Assembly (NCBI GenBank): GCA_963698535.1 | Contig: CAVORD010000001.1 | Span: 1,895,823 to 1,959,822, forward strand | DNA: 64,000 nucleotides | Source of the DNA: an uncultured Bacteroidales bacterium | GTDB lineage: Bacteria > Bacteroidota > Bacteroidia > Bacteroidales > VadinHA17 | Direction of reading: 5' to 3' | Shown: piece by piece, positions 45,064 to 59,880 of the stretch | Layout: every line of letters starts with the position of its first letter | Position numbering within the stretch: the stretch's first letter is position 1 | The notes under the pieces: model-generated | Database searches by the model: none | Told to the model about the DNA's origin: nothing | Seen by the model: only the letters and a program-made list of their open reading frames with translations | Program-made: the position numbers and the translations under genes

Positions 45064-46347
45064 CTAATAAACACGGTACCCTGAAAATGAGCCGGTACCT
45101 GATTCAGACGAGGAACCAGTGTTAATCCGAACTGTTACATACTGACCTGCATTAAGCTTAATTGTAATAGAGCGATGCAAAAGCATGCCTTGATTAATAC
45201 CTGTTTGAAGTGTTTCGTATAAAAACCCGTCAACATAGACATACAATTTCCTTACATCGCCGATACCTGTAGCATTAAATCCAATATTAAAGGTGTAAAT
45301 TCCGGCTAAAGGTGCTGTAAATCTTCCAGTATTGGGATCATAAGATAAAGAACTGTCATACTCTTCCCCGTCAGCAATGAAATCATAATCAGTAACAAAA
45401 CTCAACCCGGTTACTGAGACAGTCCTCTTCGCCCTAAACGCCACCATATTGCTACTCAGGTTAACACTTTTCGTAACACCTCCCTCAACGATTTCGAGGT
45501 TTGTTCCGTTTACTCTGACATCTGTAATTGCTTCATTTGTAGGATCAGCATCAGCATCATTTTTCAGCTCCGACAGGTCGATCTTAGCCGTCGAATTACT
45601 TATCCCTATCAGCCTGTTTCCTGCGTCCCAGTTAAGGGTCTGGTTATAAGGATTGAGATTAATTGAGTCCGGAGAAGCCAATTTGGTTACCTTAAGATAA
45701 TGGTTAACGAGTTTCAGGTCCTGTAACTCATTCGTCGGGTCAAAGTCAGCATCATTCTTAAGTGATGTAAGGTCGACCTCATTGATTTTTATTCCGCCAA
45801 TCTTACTTAATATTGATAATATGTTACCATCAAACGACAGTGCCTGATCATCAGTGGCAGGATCTCCCGGATCTCCCTTCGGCCCTGCCGGTCCAGGTGT
45901 TCCCGGTATTCCCTGCGGTCCTGGTTCCAGCGACTTTAAAGCATAGAGAGCATAGGGGACAGCCATGAACTGCATGGTCCCCATCTCCAGGAAATCATTG
46001 GCAAATTTTATCTCAACCTTCAGATAGTGGTTCAGACTGCCCCAGTCGATCTGGCCAAATGTTACCGATCCGCCAGTGGGCGTGCCCTTACCCACTATAA
46101 GGGAGAATACTCCATATTTCGAGGTCTTGACACCGGAATGTAACTCCTCATAGACCACCGTTCCCAGGGGACTGCCGGAGAGGATCGTAAACTTTACCGA
46201 AAGGTCCTTGTCTGCAAGCTCCCTGCCCGTATTATCTCTGGCCACAGCCTGATAGTGTATCCCGGCAGGTACATTTTGTGCTTCCAATATTCCCGGGACT
46301 GCGGAGAACAACAGTACTGCTAATAATATGGAGAATAACCTTTTCAT
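45064..46347 (-). CDS. secreted protein with collagen-like Gly-X-Y stretch and C-terminal C1q/TNF-like jelly-roll domain
   Basis: Signal peptide. GPQGIPGTPGPAGPKGDPGDP (7 G-X-Y triplets). Two NDAD.DPTNE repeats. C-terminus ...GRFTAPLAGIYTFNIGF...YVTVRIN... Confidence 0.65.
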   Translation of the reverse strand: MKRLFSILLAVLLFSAVPGILEAQNVPAGIHYQAVARDNTGRELADKDLSVKFTILSGSPLGTVVYEELHSGVKTSKYGVFSLIVGKGTPTGGSVTFGQIDWGSLNHYLKVEIKFANDFLEMGTMQFMAVPYALYALKSLEPGPQGIPGTPGPAGPKGDPGDPATDDQALSFDGNILSILSKIGGIKINEVDLTSLKNDADFDPTNELQDLKLVNHYLKVTKLASPDSINLNPYNQTLNWDAGNRLIGISNSTAKIDLSELKNDADADPTNEAITDVRVNGTNLEIVEGGVTKSVNLSSNMVAFRAKRTVSVTGLSFVTDYDFIADGEEYDSSLSYDPNTGRFTAPLAGIYTFNIGFNATGIGDVRKLYVYVDGFLYETLQTGINQGMLLHRSITIKLNAGQYVTVRINTGSSSESGTGSFSGYRVY

Positions 46348-52293: not shown

Positions 52294-54926
52294 ATGAAAA
52301 AGCTAACAGCCCTGCTGATTCTGTTACTAACCATTACATCGTTATGGGGGCAAACAACCAAGAAGAGATACAAAATAGAGCGCACCGATACACCCCCTTC
52401 GATAGATGCTATTCTCGACGACGCAGCATGGGAAAAAGGAAACTGGTCGGGTGACTTCTGGCAATTTGAGCCCTACGATAACCTCCCACCGTCGCAACCA
52501 ACAGAATTCAAACTCCTTTATGATGATTCATTCATCTATTTCGCCGTTAAATGTTATGATTCCTCACCCGACAGTATCATTAACAGGATGACCAGGCGCG
52601 ATAATGTTGAAGGTGACTTTGTTGGTGTAATGTTCGACAGTTATCACGACCTTAGAACCAGTTTTTCATTTTTTGTCAGCTCTTCAGGGGTTAAAATGGA
52701 TATTATCCACTCCAGCAACGGTCAGAGCGAAGATCCCACATGGGATCCTATCTGGATGGTTAAAACTCAGATCTACGACTGGGGATGGGTTGCGGAAGCA
52801 AAGATCCCGTTTACCCAGTTAAGGTTCAACTCAAGTTCACGGGAAGTATGGGGCTTTGAAGTAACCAGAATGATCTACCGCTTCAATGAAATGAGTATTT
52901 GGAACCCTATTCCCAATACAGCGCCGGGATTTGTTCATATGTTCGGAGAACTTGATGGACTTCAGGGTGTTAAGCCAAGGAAGCAACTCGACCTTACACC
53001 GTTTGTAGTTGCCGGATTCGACAAATACGAGAAGGAAGATGGGAACCCATTTGCCACAGGTTTCGACTTCAAACGCAATATAGGACTTGACGGCAAAATA
53101 GGGATAACAAACAACCTAACACTCGACTTTACGATCAGTCCCGACTTTGGGCAGGTGGAGGCCGACCCCTCGGAAGTTAACCTCAGTGCGTTTGAAACAT
53201 TCTACGAGGAGAAGAGACCATTCTTTATTGAAGGGAAAAACATTACCAGCTTCAAGACAGGTATTGGCGATGGTGATATCGGTAACGATAATCTGTTTTA
53301 CTCACGCAGGATCGGGCGCAGACCATGGGGATACCCCGATCTTAATTCCGGGGAGTATGCTGATGTCCCTACCCAAACAAGTATTATTGGTGCAGCCAAA
53401 TTAACCGGGAAAACAGAGAACGGATGGTCGATAGGTGTAATTGAGAGTGTTGCAGCTGAGGAATTCGCCAAAATCGACAATAACGGTACGGTAAGAAAAG
53501 AATCGGTAGAGCCCCTCACAAACTATTTTGTGGCACGACTGCAGAAGGATGCAAACAAAGGAAATACAATTATCGGGGGTATGTACACAAATACCCTGCG
53601 CGATCTCGATACAGTAAGTGTTGATTATCTTCACAAAACGGCACATACCGGAGGAATTGACTTTTCACAGTTCTTCAAGGATAAAAACTATGTCTTCCAG
53701 GCTAATATGGCTGTCAGTAAGGTGTATGGTTCAGAAGAGGCCATCGACAGGACCCAGAAATCATCAAGAAGGTATTTTCAGCGACCCGATAATGATTATG
53801 TCGATTATGATCCTGCCAAGAACCTCACTTTCTGGACATGGCGGAAATATCTCAATTTGGAAAATAGGTGGCAACTGGAACTTTATGATTTTCAACCTTT
53901 GGAAATCACCCGGATTTGAACTAAATGATCTTGGCTACCTAAGAGATGCCGACCAGATACTTAATGTTGTGTGGTCGGGATATAACATTAACCAGCCTTT
54001 CAGTATATTCAGGAATATGCGGTTTAATTTCAACTTGTGGAACGGATGGGATTTCGGAGGGGTATATCATGGTATCGGTGGTAACATTAACATTAATACA
54101 CAGTTCAAGAACTACTGGAGATTAAGTACCGGAATCAACCGCGATGGAGAATCACTCGTTAACGGTTTCCTGAGAGGAGGACCGGCAATGCTGCATCCGG
54201 GAGGTAGCAATTATAATATTTTCCTGGGAACCGACGACAGGAAGAAATTAAACTTCACTATTAATTCCAATTTTAACAAAACCGATGATGATGCCGGTGA
54301 ATCGCTGAGGTTAGGATTAGGAATTACCTACAGGCCTGTCAATACACTCAGGATAAGTCTGAATCCGGCCTATTCCAGATCATCATCTGAACTACAATAT
54401 ATTACAGATCTATCCTTTGGTTCGGATGATAGGTACATCTTCGGGGCTATTGACCAGAAAGTTCTTAGCATGTCGCTCAGGATAAACTATAATCTGACCC
54501 CCGATCTTACAATCCAGTATTGGGGTCAGCCCTTCATTGCAAGCGGGAAATATTCAAGAATAAAGATGATAACAAATACCCCACAGGCTGAAAGTTTCGG
54601 CGACAGATTCTATACTTTTTCCGGTACTGAAATAGGATATGACGCAGGGGCGGGGGAATATCTTATTGACGAAGACAACAATGGCTCTACAGATTACAGA
54701 GTGGAGAATCCAAACTTCAACGTCAGTGAGTTCCTCTCCAACTTTGTGGTCAGATGGGAGTTTGTTCCGGGATCCACTGTTTACCTGGTATGGTCGCAGA
54801 CGCGAGGAGCATAGCAACGATTCAGGCATTATGAAGTTTGGCGACGATATCGACGATCTTTTCTCGGTAAATAAACCTTACAACACCGTCCTGCTGAAAT
54901 TCTCATACCGGTTTGGATTGAGATAA
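52294..54926 (+). pseudogene. DUF5916 / CBM9-like outer-membrane-associated protein, two +1 frameshifts (about 53825 and about 54805)
   Basis: Three consecutive ORFs in frames 1>2>0 continue one protein: ...DYDPAKNLT | LSGHGGNISIWKIGG... and ...VYLVWSQTR | EEHSNDSG.... Confidence 0.7.
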
Positions 54927-56235: not shown

Positions 56236-57111
56236 CTACGAAAGAATGGATTTAAGTTCTTCAAAGGAGCCCGATCCGCTTTTCATGTCTGATCCTGACC
56301 CTGAGAAAGATAGTCTCAGGATGCCTCCTGCCAGGATCTTTTTCCCCTTGAATTTTGTTGTCAGCTCTTCTGAGATCCTCTCAGGATCAATCTGCCGGGA
56401 GGGAGATAAAACATATGTAACAACAATATCAGGGTTCCAGGAAGTGCTGGCAGCCACTGCGGATTCAAATGGAGTATTAGCCCCGAGGTAGAGAGTATTA
56501 TGACCCCACTTGCGTATAAAGTAGTTGTAACAGAGCAGAGGAATCTCATGGTATTCATTTTCAGGCAGGAAAAGAAGGACCTTTTTGCTTCCTGCACTCT
56601 TCTCCAGTGGCAAAGAATCGATCGCAGAAATGATCTTCTGCCTGATTATATTAGTTGCAAAATGCTCCGTCGCTATCCCTGCAGAACCTGTCTGCCACAT
56701 TATACCTATCCTCCTTAGGAAGGGGAAAATTAATCCCGATATGGTGAATTCAAAACCCTTTTCCATCACCGATCTTACAAGGATTCTGTTAATCTCCGAC
56801 TCATCATGAGACAATGTGGCAACAACAAGTGCATCGGTCTGGGTATCCTTATTAAAAAGCTCCCTCGAGATGAAAGAGACCTTCTCATCTATCTCATCGC
56901 CGGTGAGGGTCGCTATCCTGGAGATCTTAAACCCGTTACGTTTCAGGATGGCAATGTTTATTATCATCCTTAACTGGTCGTCTCCGTAAAGCCTCCTGTT
57001 TGTCTCTGTCCTTTCGGGATTGATAAAACTGTAACGACGCTCCCATACACGTATTGTATGAGCATTTATTCCCGACAGTATTTCCAGGTCCTTTATTGAG
57101 TACTTCTCCAT
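56236..57111 (-). CDS. MerR family regulator with C-terminal cobalamin-binding-like domain (CarH/LitR-like)
   Basis: N-terminal MerR HTH YSIKDLEILSGINAHTIRVWERRY. C-terminal Rossmann-like region with ENEYHEIPLL (ExHxx, Pro in place of the usual Gly), LGANTP and LAGG. Confidence 0.7.
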   Translation of the reverse strand: MEKYSIKDLEILSGINAHTIRVWERRYSFINPERTETNRRLYGDDQLRMIINIAILKRNGFKISRIATLTGDEIDEKVSFISRELFNKDTQTDALVVATLSHDESEINRILVRSVMEKGFEFTISGLIFPFLRRIGIMWQTGSAGIATEHFATNIIRQKIISAIDSLPLEKSAGSKKVLLFLPENEYHEIPLLCYNYFIRKWGHNTLYLGANTPFESAVAASTSWNPDIVVTYVLSPSRQIDPERISEELTTKFKGKKILAGGILRLSFSGSGSDMKSGSGSFEELKSILS

Positions 57112-57162
57112 CTTTTCTTCTCTATTCTAAATATAATTAATAATAATGAGAGGGGTAAAGTA

Positions 57163-57192
57163 TGTGATAAATAAAAAAAATCTGCAACAATA
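57163..57192 (-). terminator. Rho-independent terminator after the fasciclin gene
   Basis: Stem ATCTGCAA/TTGCAGAT. The minus strand is followed by T8. Confidence 0.75.
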
Positions 57193-57225
57193 ATTGCAGA
57201 TTTTTCTTTCGGTGGGATATGAATA

Positions 57226-58152
57226 TTACTTAGCGGGAGATGCCGGCAAAAGTACCTTGTCTATTGCGTGAACGACACCATTTGTTGCCTGTACATCGGT
57301 TACAATTATGTCAGCATCAATATTTATTGCTGGTGATGGACTTAATGTGACCTCTATCGGACCGTTAAGTGTCTGAACGGTACCTGCTGAGAGCTGTGCA
57401 GCCCTTACATTGCCGCTTACAACGTGATACTGAAGGATCGGAATGAGCTGCTCCTTTGTCAGTTGTGCAATACCTGTTACTCCAAGTTCAGTAAAGAGGG
57501 CTTCAAAAGCTGCATTTGTCGGTGCAAATACCGTGAAAGGTCCGGCTCCTTTGAGTGTTTCAACCAGTTCAGCTTTTACAACAGCCTCCACCAGAATGCT
57601 GAATGAACTGTTGGCAATAGCCTGGTCAACTACTGTTGGCGGGAGAAGAACCTTATCAATTGCGTGTATGACACCATTCTTGACATCCACATCAGCAATA
57701 ACAACAGTTGAGCTGTTGTTGATCTTAACATTCATGCCAACATTGATATTCATACTTATTGCATCGTTATTTCTCTTACTCAGGGAATTGAAATAACCTG
57801 TAGAGAGCATGGCTGCCTTTTTCTCCTCTCCTAATACGTGGTATAAGAGAATAGGTGTAAGGGCCTCAGCTGAAAGATCGGCAACACCCGAAACACCAAG
57901 CTGACTGAATAGAGCTGTGAATGCGTCGTTTGTTGGTGCAAACACAGTAAAGTTTCCCTCTCCGTTGAGAACATCAACCAGATCAGCTTTAGTTAAAGCA
58001 TCAACCAGAATTGAGAAGTTGTTGTTTGAGACTGCGTACTCAGCAATTGTCATATCCATTACTGATTTCTCTTTTTCCTCTTTTTCGCATGATGCAAAAA
58101 TTAGTGTGGAAAAAATCATAAATACCGTAAAAATAGTTCCTAGCTTTTTCAT
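57226..58152 (-). CDS. fasciclin (FAS1) domain lipoprotein, two FAS1 domains
   Basis: Lipobox FASC. Duplicated FTVFAPTN(D/A)AF ... NGV(I/V)HAIDKVLLP. Confidence 0.9.
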   Translation of the reverse strand: MKKLGTIFTVFMIFSTLIFASCEKEEKEKSVMDMTIAEYAVSNNNFSILVDALTKADLVDVLNGEGNFTVFAPTNDAFTALFSQLGVSGVADLSAEALTPILLYHVLGEEKKAAMLSTGYFNSLSKRNNDAISMNINVGMNVKINNSSTVVIADVDVKNGVIHAIDKVLLPPTVVDQAIANSSFSILVEAVVKAELVETLKGAGPFTVFAPTNAAFEALFTELGVTGIAQLTKEQLIPILQYHVVSGNVRAAQLSAGTVQTLNGPIEVTLSPSPAINIDADIIVTDVQATNGVVHAIDKVLLPASPAK

Positions 58153-58500
58153 GAGTTCTGTTTTTTATTTGGTTTATGAAGAAGAAACATCATGAAGATT
58201 ATTTTGTTCATATTTTTGTTCGTTTATTTAGTCATTTATACTGCTAAACAGGTTCTATAGTGGCTTATTCTATACCATATATACTTGATTATTTGTCTAT
58301 TACAGTATGTTAAAAAAATTTATATTATTTTATATTTTTTTCTGTATTTTTATTCATTTGTCATATTGACATCATAAATTCCACCTTGTTTTACAGGGTC
58401 ATTACCCCTCGTAATCTTCTTTATTCTCTTTTTCCCTACGGCTGAAGCCAGTGGAATTTGTATTAAAATATTAAAAGGGCATTAGCCCAATATATAAGTG

Positions 58501-58568
58501 GTGGTGGATTAGCTTCGGTGATCCTGGAGGGGGTGATCAATAAACAATAGCCCGTTAGTGCCTGCGGG
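58501..58568. repeat. diverged copy A of an approximately 66-bp repeat family (GGATTA..CGGTGATCC...GCCCGTTAGTGCCTGCGG)
   Basis: Aligns with 58678-58746. An 18-nt identical core at 58550-58567 matches 58727-58744, offset exactly 177 bp. Confidence 0.6.
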
Positions 58569-58677
58569 GATTTTCTTTCCAGCCGGTCGCAAATTTCTTG
58601 TATAGTCAAATGCCGTTGGCTTAAGCCAATGGCATAAGTGTTGTGATGTTAAGAGGACTTCAGTCCAATAAATATGT

Positions 58678-58746
58678 AACGCGGATTACCTCCGGTGATC
58701 CGGTCTGGGGTGGCCATTCAACAAAAGCCCGTTAGTGCCTGCGGCA
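58678..58746. repeat. copy B of the same approximately 66-bp repeat family
   Basis: See copy A. Its 5' motif GCGGATTACCT recurs at 59344-59354. Confidence 0.6.
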
Positions 58747-58836
58747 CTTCGCGGGTTTGTTTCATTGCCCGCTCATGCAAGCATGGCGGGCATGAAATAA
58801 AAAACCCGCCAGCGAAGCTGAACGGGCTTTTGTTGA
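58718..58836 (-). other. approximately 120-nt rod-like nested hairpin immediately 3' of tRNA-Cys
   Basis: Outer perfect 16-bp stem: 58718-58733 pairs with 58821-58836. Middle stem CTTCGC+GGGTTT pairs with AAACCC+GCGAAG. Inner stem GCCCGC/GCGGGC. Apex CATGC-AA-GCATG. Confidence 0.55.
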
Positions 58837-58906
58837 GGTCGGTGGCGGATTCGAACCGCCGTACCTGGTTTTGCAGACCAATGCCTAGCCACTCGGCCAA
58901 CCGACC
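58836..58906 (-). tRNA. tRNA-Cys (anticodon GCA)
   Basis: Minus-strand 71 nt. Acceptor stem GGTCGGT/ACCGACC, anticodon stem TTGGT/ACCAG, loop CTGCAAA, T-arm GGCGG-TTCGAAT-CCGCC. No encoded CCA. Confidence 0.9.
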
Positions 58907-59263
58907 CTGATTATATAACTCTTGTACATTAAAGAACATCTTCTTCACCCCCTTGGGTGGCGGATTGCTCATCATCTCCTTCAGACATGCTTCGCGAGCT
59001 CTCTCCTTTCAGTCGTTCGGTTCGAACCGCCTTTGCCACTCCTGTCCGCCGAAGCTTTAGCGAAGGCGGGCGGCCAACCGACCCTGATTATATAACTCTT
59101 GTACATTAAAGAACATCTTCTTCACCCCCTTGGGTGGCGGATTGCTCATCATGTCCTTCAGACATGCTTCGTGAGCTCTCTCCTTTCAGTCGTTCGGTTC
59201 GAACCGCCTTTGCCACTCCTGTCCGCCGAAGCTTTAGCGAAGGCGGGCGGCCAACCGACCCTG
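58895..59263 (-). repeat. 177-bp tandem repeat (2 full units + 15-bp partial) derived from the tRNA-Cys gene and its upstream flank
   Basis: Units 58895-59071 and 59072-59248 differ at 2 positions (58976 C/G, 58995 C/T). Each unit carries the tRNA 5' end CGGCCAACCGACCC and both T-arm halves (GGTGGCGGATT ... TTCGAACCGCC), separated by a 53-nt insert. Confidence 0.85.
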
Positions 59264-59471
59264 TGCTCCGTAGCTCAAAGAGCGAAGGAGTACCATATAA
59301 TAGTTATCAAAAACTCAAAAGAACAATTCTGCCTCCCGCCCCGCGGATTACCTTGTCCCGTTTTACCGGGTCCTGGCAAACTTAACGTTCGAGGTGCAAA
59401 AATAACAAAAATCGGATAATAACAAGTCACAATTGATTGTTACAGATAATTACCGGGACAGGACCCTGATC

Positions 59472-59880
59472 CTACTTCTCCACAATGGTTAGACAATAAC
59501 AGGTTTCTCCGGCATACACATCTATCCAGTACTCCTTGCCTCCTTTCTTTAGCGTGAGTGTCGACTGGTTGCCGCCAAACTCATAAACCACTCTGCCTCC
59601 GGCACTCTTTATCATGCTTGCATGACTCTCAAGCACCTTCGAGGGAACAGTCTTTGTCGTCGACTCATAGTAGATGTAGGTCAAGACTACCCTCCACTTT
59701 GCTCGTAACATTGAGGCCGGTTTTAAACGCATGCTCACCGGGATCCTCATTGTAATAGTCGGTTATCGTGTAGCCTTTCATCCGACCAAACAGAACGTGA
59801 TCTTTACTTCCTTCCATGTCCTGTGCCCTGAGCACTAAGGGAAGAAAAATAACCAGCATAAAAATGATTGATCTTTTCAT
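59472..59880 (-). pseudogene. small secreted protein, split by one +1 frameshift (about 59690)
   Basis: ORF 59665-59880 has a signal peptide and ...GLNVTSKVEG. ORF 59472-59750 continues in the +1 frame as ...VVLTYIYYESTTK.... The junction lies at a GGG run. Confidence 0.55.

Follow-up and report, generated by a model that had tools for sequence, protein, structure and literature searches.

A repeated tRNA-Cys-derived unit with a split T loop upstream of tRNA-Cys in Bacteroidales: a candidate family of tRNA-like RNAs

The tRNA-Cys gene and the array before it

The stretch of DNA considered here, referred to below as the window, comprises 64,000 nucleotides (nt) from an uncultured Bacteroidales bacterium (contig CAVORD010000001.1, positions 1,895,823 to 1,959,822), and carries on its minus strand a gene for tRNA-Cys that is preceded by two tandem 177-nt units derived from tRNA-Cys itself. 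This array of units lies between a single promoter-like box and the tRNA-Cys gene, and contains two kinds of covarying module and a truncated acceptor end. The features of the locus are the following.

58799-58831, minus strand: terminator-like hairpin and T run after the tRNA (AAAAGCCCGTTCAGCTTCGCTGGCGGGTTTTTT)
58835/58836-58906, minus strand: genuine tRNA-Cys (anticodon GCA), called by ARAGORN and by Rfam (RF00005, 61.1 bits); CCA not encoded
58907-59083, minus strand: unit 2, tRNA-proximal, tRNA-Cys-derived, 177 nt (repeat detection, alignment to tRNA)
59084-59260, minus strand: unit 1, distal, tRNA-Cys-derived, 177 nt (repeat detection, alignment to tRNA)
59318-59373, minus strand: probable remnant of an internally deleted third unit, with hairpin GGACCCGGTAAAACGGGAC, then AATCCGCGG (the 3' half of a T arm), then the spacer motif GTTCTTT
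59377-59384, minus strand: second, weaker box match, TAAGTTTG
59397-59404, minus strand: promoter-like Bacteroidetes sigma-A -7 box TATTTTTG, within TTGTTATTTTTGCA (motif match; putative promoter)

An earlier note, made from the sequence alone, had described two near-identical 177-nt units in front of tRNA-Cys, and their existence is confirmed by ARAGORN, Rfam, Tandem Repeats Finder and a repeat search taken together. Tandem Repeats Finder reports a period of 177 nt, 2.1 copies and 98% matches over 58894-59263, the repeat search finds the units to be 99% identical to each other, and the count of 2 differences in 177 positions given in the note is exact (59153/58976 and 59172/58995). Sub-segments of the units do not occur again in the 64-kb window, where the chance expectation is 0.00.

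The internal composition of the units departs in some details from the earlier description. The tRNA gene begins with GGTCGG at 58906, and what had been counted as the first 14 nt of the tRNA is a shared 5' segment of 16 nt, CAGGGTCGGTTGGCCG, made up of 13 nt of tRNA and 3 nt of upstream flank. After tRNA position 13 there follows a hairpin module and then GAGUGGCAAA, the anticodon arm being gone; the 39-nt hairpin segment said to replace both the D and the anticodon arms is indeed present, but the D-loop string of the tRNA, GAGTGGC, survives within it. Similarly, both the insert in the T loop and the 3' flank are present, with lengths of 54 rather than 53 nt and of 48 rather than about 60 nt, respectively. 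In all, 33 of 57 tRNA positions are kept in each window unit, with 0 mismatches among them, the rest being deleted or replaced, and the 3' acceptor strand is cut to ACC. The window units are the most reduced and divergent members of the family described below.

The units do not pass as functional tRNAs, given an acceptor whose 3' strand is no more than ACC, the loss of the anticodon arm and a T loop interrupted by 54 nt. ARAGORN finds the gene at 58835-58906 alone, and Rfam gives no tRNA match on the window units even at E<=10; indeed, no unit is called a tRNA by either method in the window or in the other loci searched.

A family of units in metagenome loci

The earlier note had proposed looking for the unit in related genomes, and there it recurs. 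A scan of a metagenome collection with a pattern for the split T arm, GGCGGTTCGAA-N(38-68)-AATCCGCCACC, returned 31 loci, of which 27 have the same architecture and the conserved insert and 4 are chance matches in GC-rich or coding sequence; the pattern fixes both halves of the T arm and the ACC, such that their invariance is no evidence of conservation and 27 is a lower bound on the breadth of the family. Each of the 27 either immediately precedes tRNA-Cys or falls at the end of a contig, and wherever the contig continues a genuine tRNA-Cys is found 35-80 nt downstream. In the window the same arrangement is seen: the array stands between a TAnnTTTG box and a genuine tRNA-Cys on the same strand, and the 5' part of each unit is derived from, and near-identical to, the neighbouring tRNA-Cys.

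The likeness between a unit and its own tRNA is close in most lineages: of the 14 other units open to comparison, 12 match at 52-57 of 57 positions and the remaining two (L087 and L093) at 45 of 57. In L075, L077, L094 and L099 the unit agrees with the adjoining gene at each of the 57 tRNA positions as far as the T loop, with no additions in L075, L094 and L099 and with a 62-nt hairpin insertion in the variable region of L077, and in L086, L085 and L091 there are one or two differences. Lineage-specific variants of the tRNA are common to the unit and the tRNA beside it. The D, anticodon and variable regions are, depending on lineage, intact, deleted or decorated with hairpins; where other lineages have inserted hairpins, these follow position 13 in the D loop, substitute for the anticodon loop or occupy the variable region. 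The number of units ranges from 1 to at least 2 among loci. The 3' strand of the acceptor is ACCG(A/G) in most copies, and through this truncation the 7-bp acceptor stem, the discriminator base and a chargeable end cannot form; it is thus unlikely that a unit is matured or charged in the way of a tRNA.

The gene order of the window, glnS, orf194, folB, array and tRNA-Cys, is common to L086/L100, in which the array also directly follows folB, and in a looser form to L085, where glnS, orf194 and folB again lie upstream and the array is 3.4 kb from folB. The glutaminyl-tRNA synthetases (GlnRS) of these loci are 74-77% identical to that of the window. That the order is kept over such a distance indicates that the arrangement is of long standing and has, in at least part of the group, been passed on by vertical descent.

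The family also allows an assessment of whether the unit encodes a small protein. In the window unit an AGGAG precedes an ATG (~58988) that opens a 19-codon open reading frame (ORF) running to GTT CTT TAA, and this frame ends in a conserved string, GTTCTTTAA. Other loci either have no ORF in that frame or have an 11-codon ORF in another frame that stops ahead of the motif, and of the two differences that separate the window copies, one is non-synonymous. The ORF was rejected as a gene for its lack of conservation among loci, and a coding role for the unit is scarcely credible.

The T-loop insert

The part of the unit that the tRNA does not have is an insert of 40-60 nt that follows UUCGAA, at T-loop positions 59/60. 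These positions are bulged in T-loop motifs and tolerant of insertion. Over the 27 loci the insert has the conserved form CCGA(CU/AC)GA-NN-GAA-NN-GA(A/G)-GAGCUC-GCGAG-[variable hairpin]-CGAGC-AAU. The proposed model of the T arm and insert is a three-way junction, closed by the T stem and bearing two hairpins, H1 and H2. In the window its parts fall as follows.

59133-59208, minus strand: unit 1, T arm and T-loop insert (covariance model R1, 78.5 bits, E ~1e-16)
59179-59193, 59173-59178 and 59144-59172, minus strand: unit 1, H1, J2 (GAGCTC) and H2, respectively, with T stem GGCGG/CCGCC
58956-59031, minus strand: unit 2, T arm and T-loop insert (model R1, 79.8 bits, E ~1e-16)
59002-59016, 58996-59001 and 58967-58995, minus strand: unit 2, H1, J2 and H2, respectively

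The window units contain every element by which the family is defined: the T stem GGCGG/CCGCC around UUCGAA-CCGA, H1 (Y-GA-NN-GAA-NN-GA-R), GAGCUC, H2 (GC-GA-G...C-GA-GC) and AAU. Their insert is on average ~60% identical to the other copies, with the same architecture. Other copies score 59-98 bits with model R1, which finds no copy in ~437 kb of unrelated Bacteroidales loci, nor in five loci (L101-L105) that were reached through three GlnRS relatives and that keep glnS and folB without a tRNA-Cys array there.

A symmetric tandem G.A motif, YGAR/YGAR, is present in both H1 and H2, with a second one in many H2 hairpins, and the G and A of these motifs are invariant. Around them the pairs vary in a compensatory manner: of 13 varying pairs in H1 and H2, 11 show compensatory changes in a MAFFT alignment of 23 copies and all 13 do so in a model-based alignment of 26 copies. 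In H1, for example, U-A is replaced by C-G, and A-U by G-C or C-G, and at the base of H2 C-G is replaced by U-A; H1 of the window has covarying pairs of its own, CG/UA instead of AU/CG. The covariation score of 0.34, as against <=0.08 when the partners are slid, was attained in 0 of 500 shuffles, a statistic that is generous given that the sequences are related and that one of the two alignments (A4, 26 copies) is fitted to the model. The alternative fold that RNAalifold itself prefers has zero covarying pairs on the same alignment. An alternative register for the base of H2, GCUCG/CGAGC, was rejected, as the C-to-U and G-to-A changes covary only in GC-GA-G/C-GA-GC. Judged by comparison of the copies, the insert is a structured domain under selection.

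The recurring hairpin module

The second kind of covarying module is a hairpin of the form stem-UUCGC-UAAA-GC-UU(A)C-stem, given in the earlier note as CCGCC-GAA-GC-TTTA-GC-GAA-GGCGG on the plus strand, which occurs three times in the window, in each case inside the array.

59044-59071, minus strand: hairpin module of unit 2, with the same sequence as in unit 1
59221-59248, minus strand: hairpin module of unit 1 (GCCCGCC-TTCGC-TAAA-GC-TTC-GGCGGAC), after tRNA position 13
59263-59293, minus strand: leader hairpin module (GTACTCC-TTCGC-TCTTTGA-GC-TAC-GGAGCAC), directly 5' of unit 1

Leader hairpins of the same type and in the same position are found in L074, L083, L086, L091, L097 and L099. Other loci have the module within the D loop or the variable region, just 5' of a tRNA or tRNA-like start, or nested in its own loop. 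Its closing stem covaries, with compensatory changes at 5 pairs and a score of 0.375 that 0 of 500 shuffles reach. With the conservation of the family and the covariation of both sorts of hairpin, the comparative data lend support to one of the suggestions of the earlier note, namely that the unit is a tRNA-derived structured RNA.

Two further observations concern these hairpins. In the variable-region insertions of L070, L077 and L093 the module is nested in the loop of another copy of itself, the closing stems being different, and such nesting indicates that the module proliferates inside the RNA. In L075, and also in L078, L084 and L098, mini hairpins such as GGTCGATTGTCC-ACCATTTGGC-GGACAGTCATCGACTGG are placed ~45-50 nt before each tRNA or tRNA-like 5' end; these resemble the 5' acceptor strand of the tRNA and a D-arm-like hairpin closed by its own complement, and in one of them a G6-to-A change is offset by a C-to-U change. 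They are a further kind of leader derived from tRNA fragments.

Promoter, spacers and terminator

The -7 box of the Bacteroidetes sigma-A has the form TAnnTTTG and occupies positions -12 to -5 (PMC9723704). A box of the TTATTATTTTTGCA type precedes the array in 17 of the 17 loci for which upstream sequence is available, usually 10-17 nt from the first tRNA-like 5' end, and 51-136 nt from it when a leader hairpin or a remnant intervenes. TAnnTTTG does not occur inside the array in the window, nor in 18 of the 20 other loci tested. After the tRNA-Cys gene a hairpin and T run is found in most other loci, as it is in the window. One -7 box for each array, together with a terminator after the tRNA, suggests that the array and tRNA-Cys form a single precursor transcript.

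This arrangement bears on a proposal of the earlier note that the repeats are a promoter-duplication array, in which each unit would bring its own promoter (TTATATAAT) for the next copy or for the tRNA. It is true that an AT-rich, TATAAT-like string ends each unit, 2 nt ahead of the next copy. Such a TATAAT, however, ending 2 nt before G1, would put the start site inside the tRNA, and the last 15 nt of the spacer, which beside the units is in any case barely alignable across loci, are not conserved between loci. A sigma-70 scan finds no promoter-like site in the unit flanks of the window, and the TAnnTTTG box is present once, upstream of the entire array, rather than in the window spacers. The proposal is accordingly very improbable.

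The region between the box and unit 1 is probably occupied, on modest sequence evidence, by a third and internally deleted unit at 59318-59373. Local alignment of this region with the tail of the L083 unit and its leader hairpin scores 39.5, against a maximum of 33 in 200 shuffles, with most of the score coming from the adjoining leader hairpin.

The spacers of most loci contain a motif, GUUCUUU(A/U)A, located 20-30 nt before the next tRNA or tRNA-like start and found in the window, on the minus strand, at 58931-58937, 59108-59114 and 59318-59324; in class-B loci its place is taken by GUUAUUUGAA. The motif is neither a promoter box nor part of a conserved ORF or of a supported pairing, and it may be a processing site. 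A pairing of the spacer GUUCUUU with the purine tract AAGGAGC was considered and rejected, for it fits the class-A and window copies and fails in class-B copies (GUUAUUU against GAGAGAGC).

Just beyond the tRNA-Cys terminator, at 58391-58744 on the minus strand, there is a second tandem repeat whose period is also 177 nt, with two copies that are ~70% alike. Each copy consists of an A-tract/U-tract hairpin followed by GGCCACCCC..CCGGATCACCGGAGGTAATCC, and relatives of it lie 3' of tRNA-Cys in L090, L091, L094 (three copies) and L083/L095. This downstream repeat is not significantly homologous to either the tRNA or the upstream units, though one of its strings, TAATCCACCACC, resembles the 3' half of the T arm.

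Origin of the near-identical copies

The earlier note took the small difference between the two units to mean very recent duplication, selection or gene conversion. Recent duplication or conversion is plausible, and L089 and L074 behave likewise. For the near-identity of the two copies in the window the best explanation is a recent event of unequal crossing-over, or of slippage, involving the repeated 16-nt tRNA 5' segments, which in the window are the only homology common to unit and tRNA. In L089 there are near-identical tandem copies with a 204-nt period, in L095 the first copy is internally deleted, and in L074 an older, hairpin-laden unit is accompanied by a unit b that has a pristine tRNA 5' half on the same 3' half and that looks like a recombinant of the tRNA and unit a. 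Unequal homologous exchange, whether between unit and tRNA or between units, would give rise to changes in copy number, to refreshed 5' halves and to the 2/177 difference of the window, and exchange of this sort with the adjacent tRNA gene would account for the units of other lineages having 5' halves identical to the tRNA.

An array so shaped by recombination might also be functionless, that is, a set of neutral tRNA-Cys pseudogene copies both made and homogenised by unequal recombination. The varying tandem number, the internally deleted copies (the first of L095, the remnant of the window at 59318-59373), the recombinant-looking units and the presence in each window copy of a pair-breaking change would all fit such an origin. 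So too would a known case, the tyrT locus of Escherichia coli, which has 178-bp tandem repeats 3' of tRNA-Tyr, each with the 3' end of that tRNA and attributed to unequal recombination, such that tRNA-flanking repeats of this size with tRNA fragments can arise by unequal crossing-over. The resemblance lies in the ~178-bp tandem repeats beside a tRNA gene, each holding a fragment of that tRNA. Unlike the tyrT repeats, for which to our knowledge no conserved, covarying structured domain has been described, the present units lie 5' of the tRNA, carry most of it in the family at large, and contain an inserted domain that covaries and is conserved across lineages. It is this insert that makes a purely neutral origin unlikely, because the tRNA lacks it and exchange with the tRNA cannot therefore preserve it; yet the insert keeps its motifs, and compensatory changes in 13 variable pairs, at 74-77% GlnRS identity, where the spacer is barely alignable. 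We consider neutrality improbable.

Still less probable is another suggestion of the earlier note, that the units are what repeated rounds of integration and excision by a mobile element left behind at tRNA-Cys (attachment-site repeats). Mobile elements often integrate at tRNA genes, each unit has 16-nt direct repeats at its flanks, and tRNA-fragment-like strings (TAATCCGCG and TAATCCACCACC) are found downstream. Integrases normally regenerate the 3' end of a tRNA, however, and the duplicated part here is the 5' end. Pfam scans of 20 window ORFs, including all the immediate neighbours, reveal no integrase and no reverse transcriptase, and the units have no match among phage records, plasmid records or viral contigs. 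Moreover, the insert is conserved with compensatory changes, and the arrangement is conserved and syntenic in distant lineages. This explanation is thus largely refuted, and what probability it retains is slight.

Near-identical short tandem repeats can also be mis-assembled, and the copy number rests on the assembly, such that the second window copy could be an artefact and the true number of units one. The two copies nevertheless differ at 2 positions, tandem copies are present in the independent assemblies of L089 and L074, and an identical copy of the window GlnRS lies on one 2.15-Mb contig (the next best relative being 79% identical), which suggests that the assembly is contiguous. An artefact is hence very unlikely and, were there but one copy, the unit and its family would remain.

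Possible function of the units

Taking the evidence as a whole, we think it fairly probable, with considerable room for doubt, that the units represent a conserved Bacteroidales family of tRNA-Cys-derived RNAs, not in Rfam, which are co-transcribed with tRNA-Cys, are released by RNase P and act as non-chargeable tRNA-like RNAs. In such a scheme the array would be transcribed with tRNA-Cys from the box at 59397-59404 as one precursor, comprising leader, unit or units and tRNA-Cys, and the cut made by RNase P at the 5' end of the tRNA would free the units. A freed unit would then be a non-chargeable tRNA-like mimic or scaffold, displaying the top half of a tRNA together with the G.A and hairpin modules, and it may bind a protein or other factor that recognises either of these.

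Several points weigh against this scheme. Co-transcription, release by RNase P and any function in trans are all matters that we infer. The earlier note had proposed folding a single unit, and single-sequence folding of the window unit gives stabilities that do not exceed those of shuffled sequences (z = -0.79 and +0.19) and structures that differ from the one that covariation supports. Minimum free energy (MFE) folds favour, on thermodynamic grounds, an alternative in which the 5' acceptor strand pairs with the AACCGAC that opens the insert, and in the window units the distal acceptor pairing is just 3 bp long. Each window unit also has one substitution that disrupts H2, an A.C in unit 1 (A at 59172) and a G.G in unit 2 (G at 58976); with a pair-breaking change in each, the window copies may be decaying or under relaxed constraint. 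The unit of L087 does not match the variant of its neighbouring tRNA, and homogenisation is therefore not universal. To these must be added the generosity of the shuffle statistics and the fixing of the T-arm halves and ACC by the search pattern, both noted above.

The alternative pairing is also central to a different explanation, in which the unit is a cis-acting leader that steers the synthesis, folding or RNase P maturation of tRNA-Cys. A possible mechanism would be a switch, in which the 5' acceptor strand GGUCGGUU alternates between two partners, the proximal AACCGAC and the distal ACCGA. Each unit has two conserved copies of the acceptor 3' strand, and in the MFE fold of L099 the proximal copy forms an 8-bp helix; however, the 5' strand is invariant, and hence neither pairing is open to a covariation test. 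Also in favour of a leader are the constant position of the unit, directly 5' of tRNA-Cys within one transcription unit, the leader hairpins that in several loci adjoin the RNase P site, and the conserved GUUCUUU motif of the spacer. The window, on the other hand, has no terminator-like hairpin and U run between unit and tRNA, a tuned switch would not be expected to vary in copy number, here 1 to at least 2, and there is no precedent in the literature searched for a riboswitch-like leader on a tRNA gene. Overall, a role in cis appears unlikely, if the most serious of the alternatives.

There is also a more far-reaching but tentative proposition, to which we would give somewhat less than an even chance. 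The units may constitute an undescribed class of bacterial tRNA-mimic RNA, not chargeable and made from the tRNA-Cys precursor, in which the junction and modules recruit a specific partner and so control the maturation or use of tRNA-Cys, or protect it, or they may contain a new small catalytic or ligand-binding domain. Candidates for the partner would include a protein, a reader of the tRNA elbow such as RNase P, and an enzyme or toxin specific for tRNA-Cys.

Relation to known RNAs

Searches with cmscan against the 4227 families of Rfam give nothing beyond chance on the units (at E<=10 for the window locus and E<=1 for four other loci), from which it can be concluded that they are not a known ribozyme, riboswitch, T-box, Y RNA or tmRNA, and no prior description of the units was found in the literature searched. 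Mimicry of tRNA by bacterial non-coding RNAs is known from few cases, among them tmRNA and YrlA.

The closest published analogue is YrlA, a bacterial Y RNA (PMC4201824). Like the units, YrlA is a non-coding RNA that mimics the top half of a tRNA (T arm, D-loop features and acceptor-like stem), with the remainder replaced, and it is not normally aminoacylated (PMC4201824). It is encoded beside Ro60 (rsr), has a Ro-binding helix with a GNCGAAN0-1G motif and retains an ordinary T loop (PMC4201824). The units, by contrast, lie upstream of their parent tRNA, are nearly identical to that tRNA and have a three-way junction in the T loop. Neither of the hallmarks sought of YrlA is found: the same Pfam scans of 20 window ORFs show no Ro60 protein or TROVE domain, and Rfam gives no Y-RNA match.

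In common with tmRNA, the units combine a mimic of the acceptor and T arm with the absence of a decoding anticodon arm, and place a structured RNA between tRNA-like halves. tmRNA has, however, a complete acceptor stem, a chargeable CCA end and a conserved tag ORF, whereas a chargeable end is missing from the units and the small ORF they contain is unconserved; no tmRNA is called at the locus by ARAGORN. The viral tRNA-like structures (TLSs) and the eukaryotic mascRNA-type transcripts are likewise cases of tRNA mimicry by a transcript that is not a tRNA, and mascRNA is released by RNase P from a longer precursor, as is proposed for the tRNA-proximal end of the units. Both belong to a different domain of life, have no sequence relation to the units and are neither derived from nor situated beside a cognate tRNA gene, and TLSs can be aminoacylated. 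Lastly, 3'ETS-leuZ of E. coli is an unstructured base-pairing sponge and a by-product of the processing of a polycistronic tRNA precursor; the units, as proposed, would also be a functional by-product of tRNA precursor processing, but 3'ETS-leuZ does not have a tRNA-like fold.

What sets the present case apart is that the mimic appears to be generated from, kept beside and co-transcribed with its parent tRNA, with recombination upholding the similarity, and that the conserved extra domain sits at the one insertion-tolerant place of the T loop (59/60). The locus serves, too, as a clean natural example of a tRNA gene duplicate turned into a different RNA. Were the units functional, they would represent a hitherto unrecognised, lineage-wide layer of tRNA-Cys biology in environmental Bacteroidales, be it in regulation, protection or processing, as well as a new structured-RNA family with three tandem G.A modules.

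Neighbouring genes and other features of the window

The window is chromosomal, Bacteroidales-like DNA with a GC content of ~43%, and among its products are SusC/SusD, a fasciclin protein, a MerR/B12-binding regulator, FolB and GlnRS. Across loci no protein gene is consistently linked to the array, save for folB, orf194 and glnS in a subset.

An ORF of 92 amino acids situated between folB and the array (59472-59750, minus strand) belongs to no Pfam family and has no tblastn counterpart in the related loci, and is perhaps spurious or confined to this lineage. On the other side of the tRNA gene, the fasciclin-domain gene (56236-58152, minus strand) and the adjoining MerR/B12-binding (CarH-like) regulator form a pair that is kept in about 65 loci of Bacteroidales metagenome-assembled genomes. 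A synteny scan of genome contigs gave 69 loci in which the pair is retained and tRNA-Cys is not present beside it, the array standing next to the pair in the window only.

Two overlapping ORFs on the plus strand, at 52294-53919 and 53618-54814, match the N-terminal and C-terminal parts of DUF5916, respectively, and look like one gene split by a frameshift, which would make it either a pseudogene or the product of an assembly indel error. Further away, at 45064-46347 on the minus strand, a protein of 427 amino acids has a C1q domain together with a weak, below-cutoff match to collagen-like repeats, a combination that is unusual for a bacterium.

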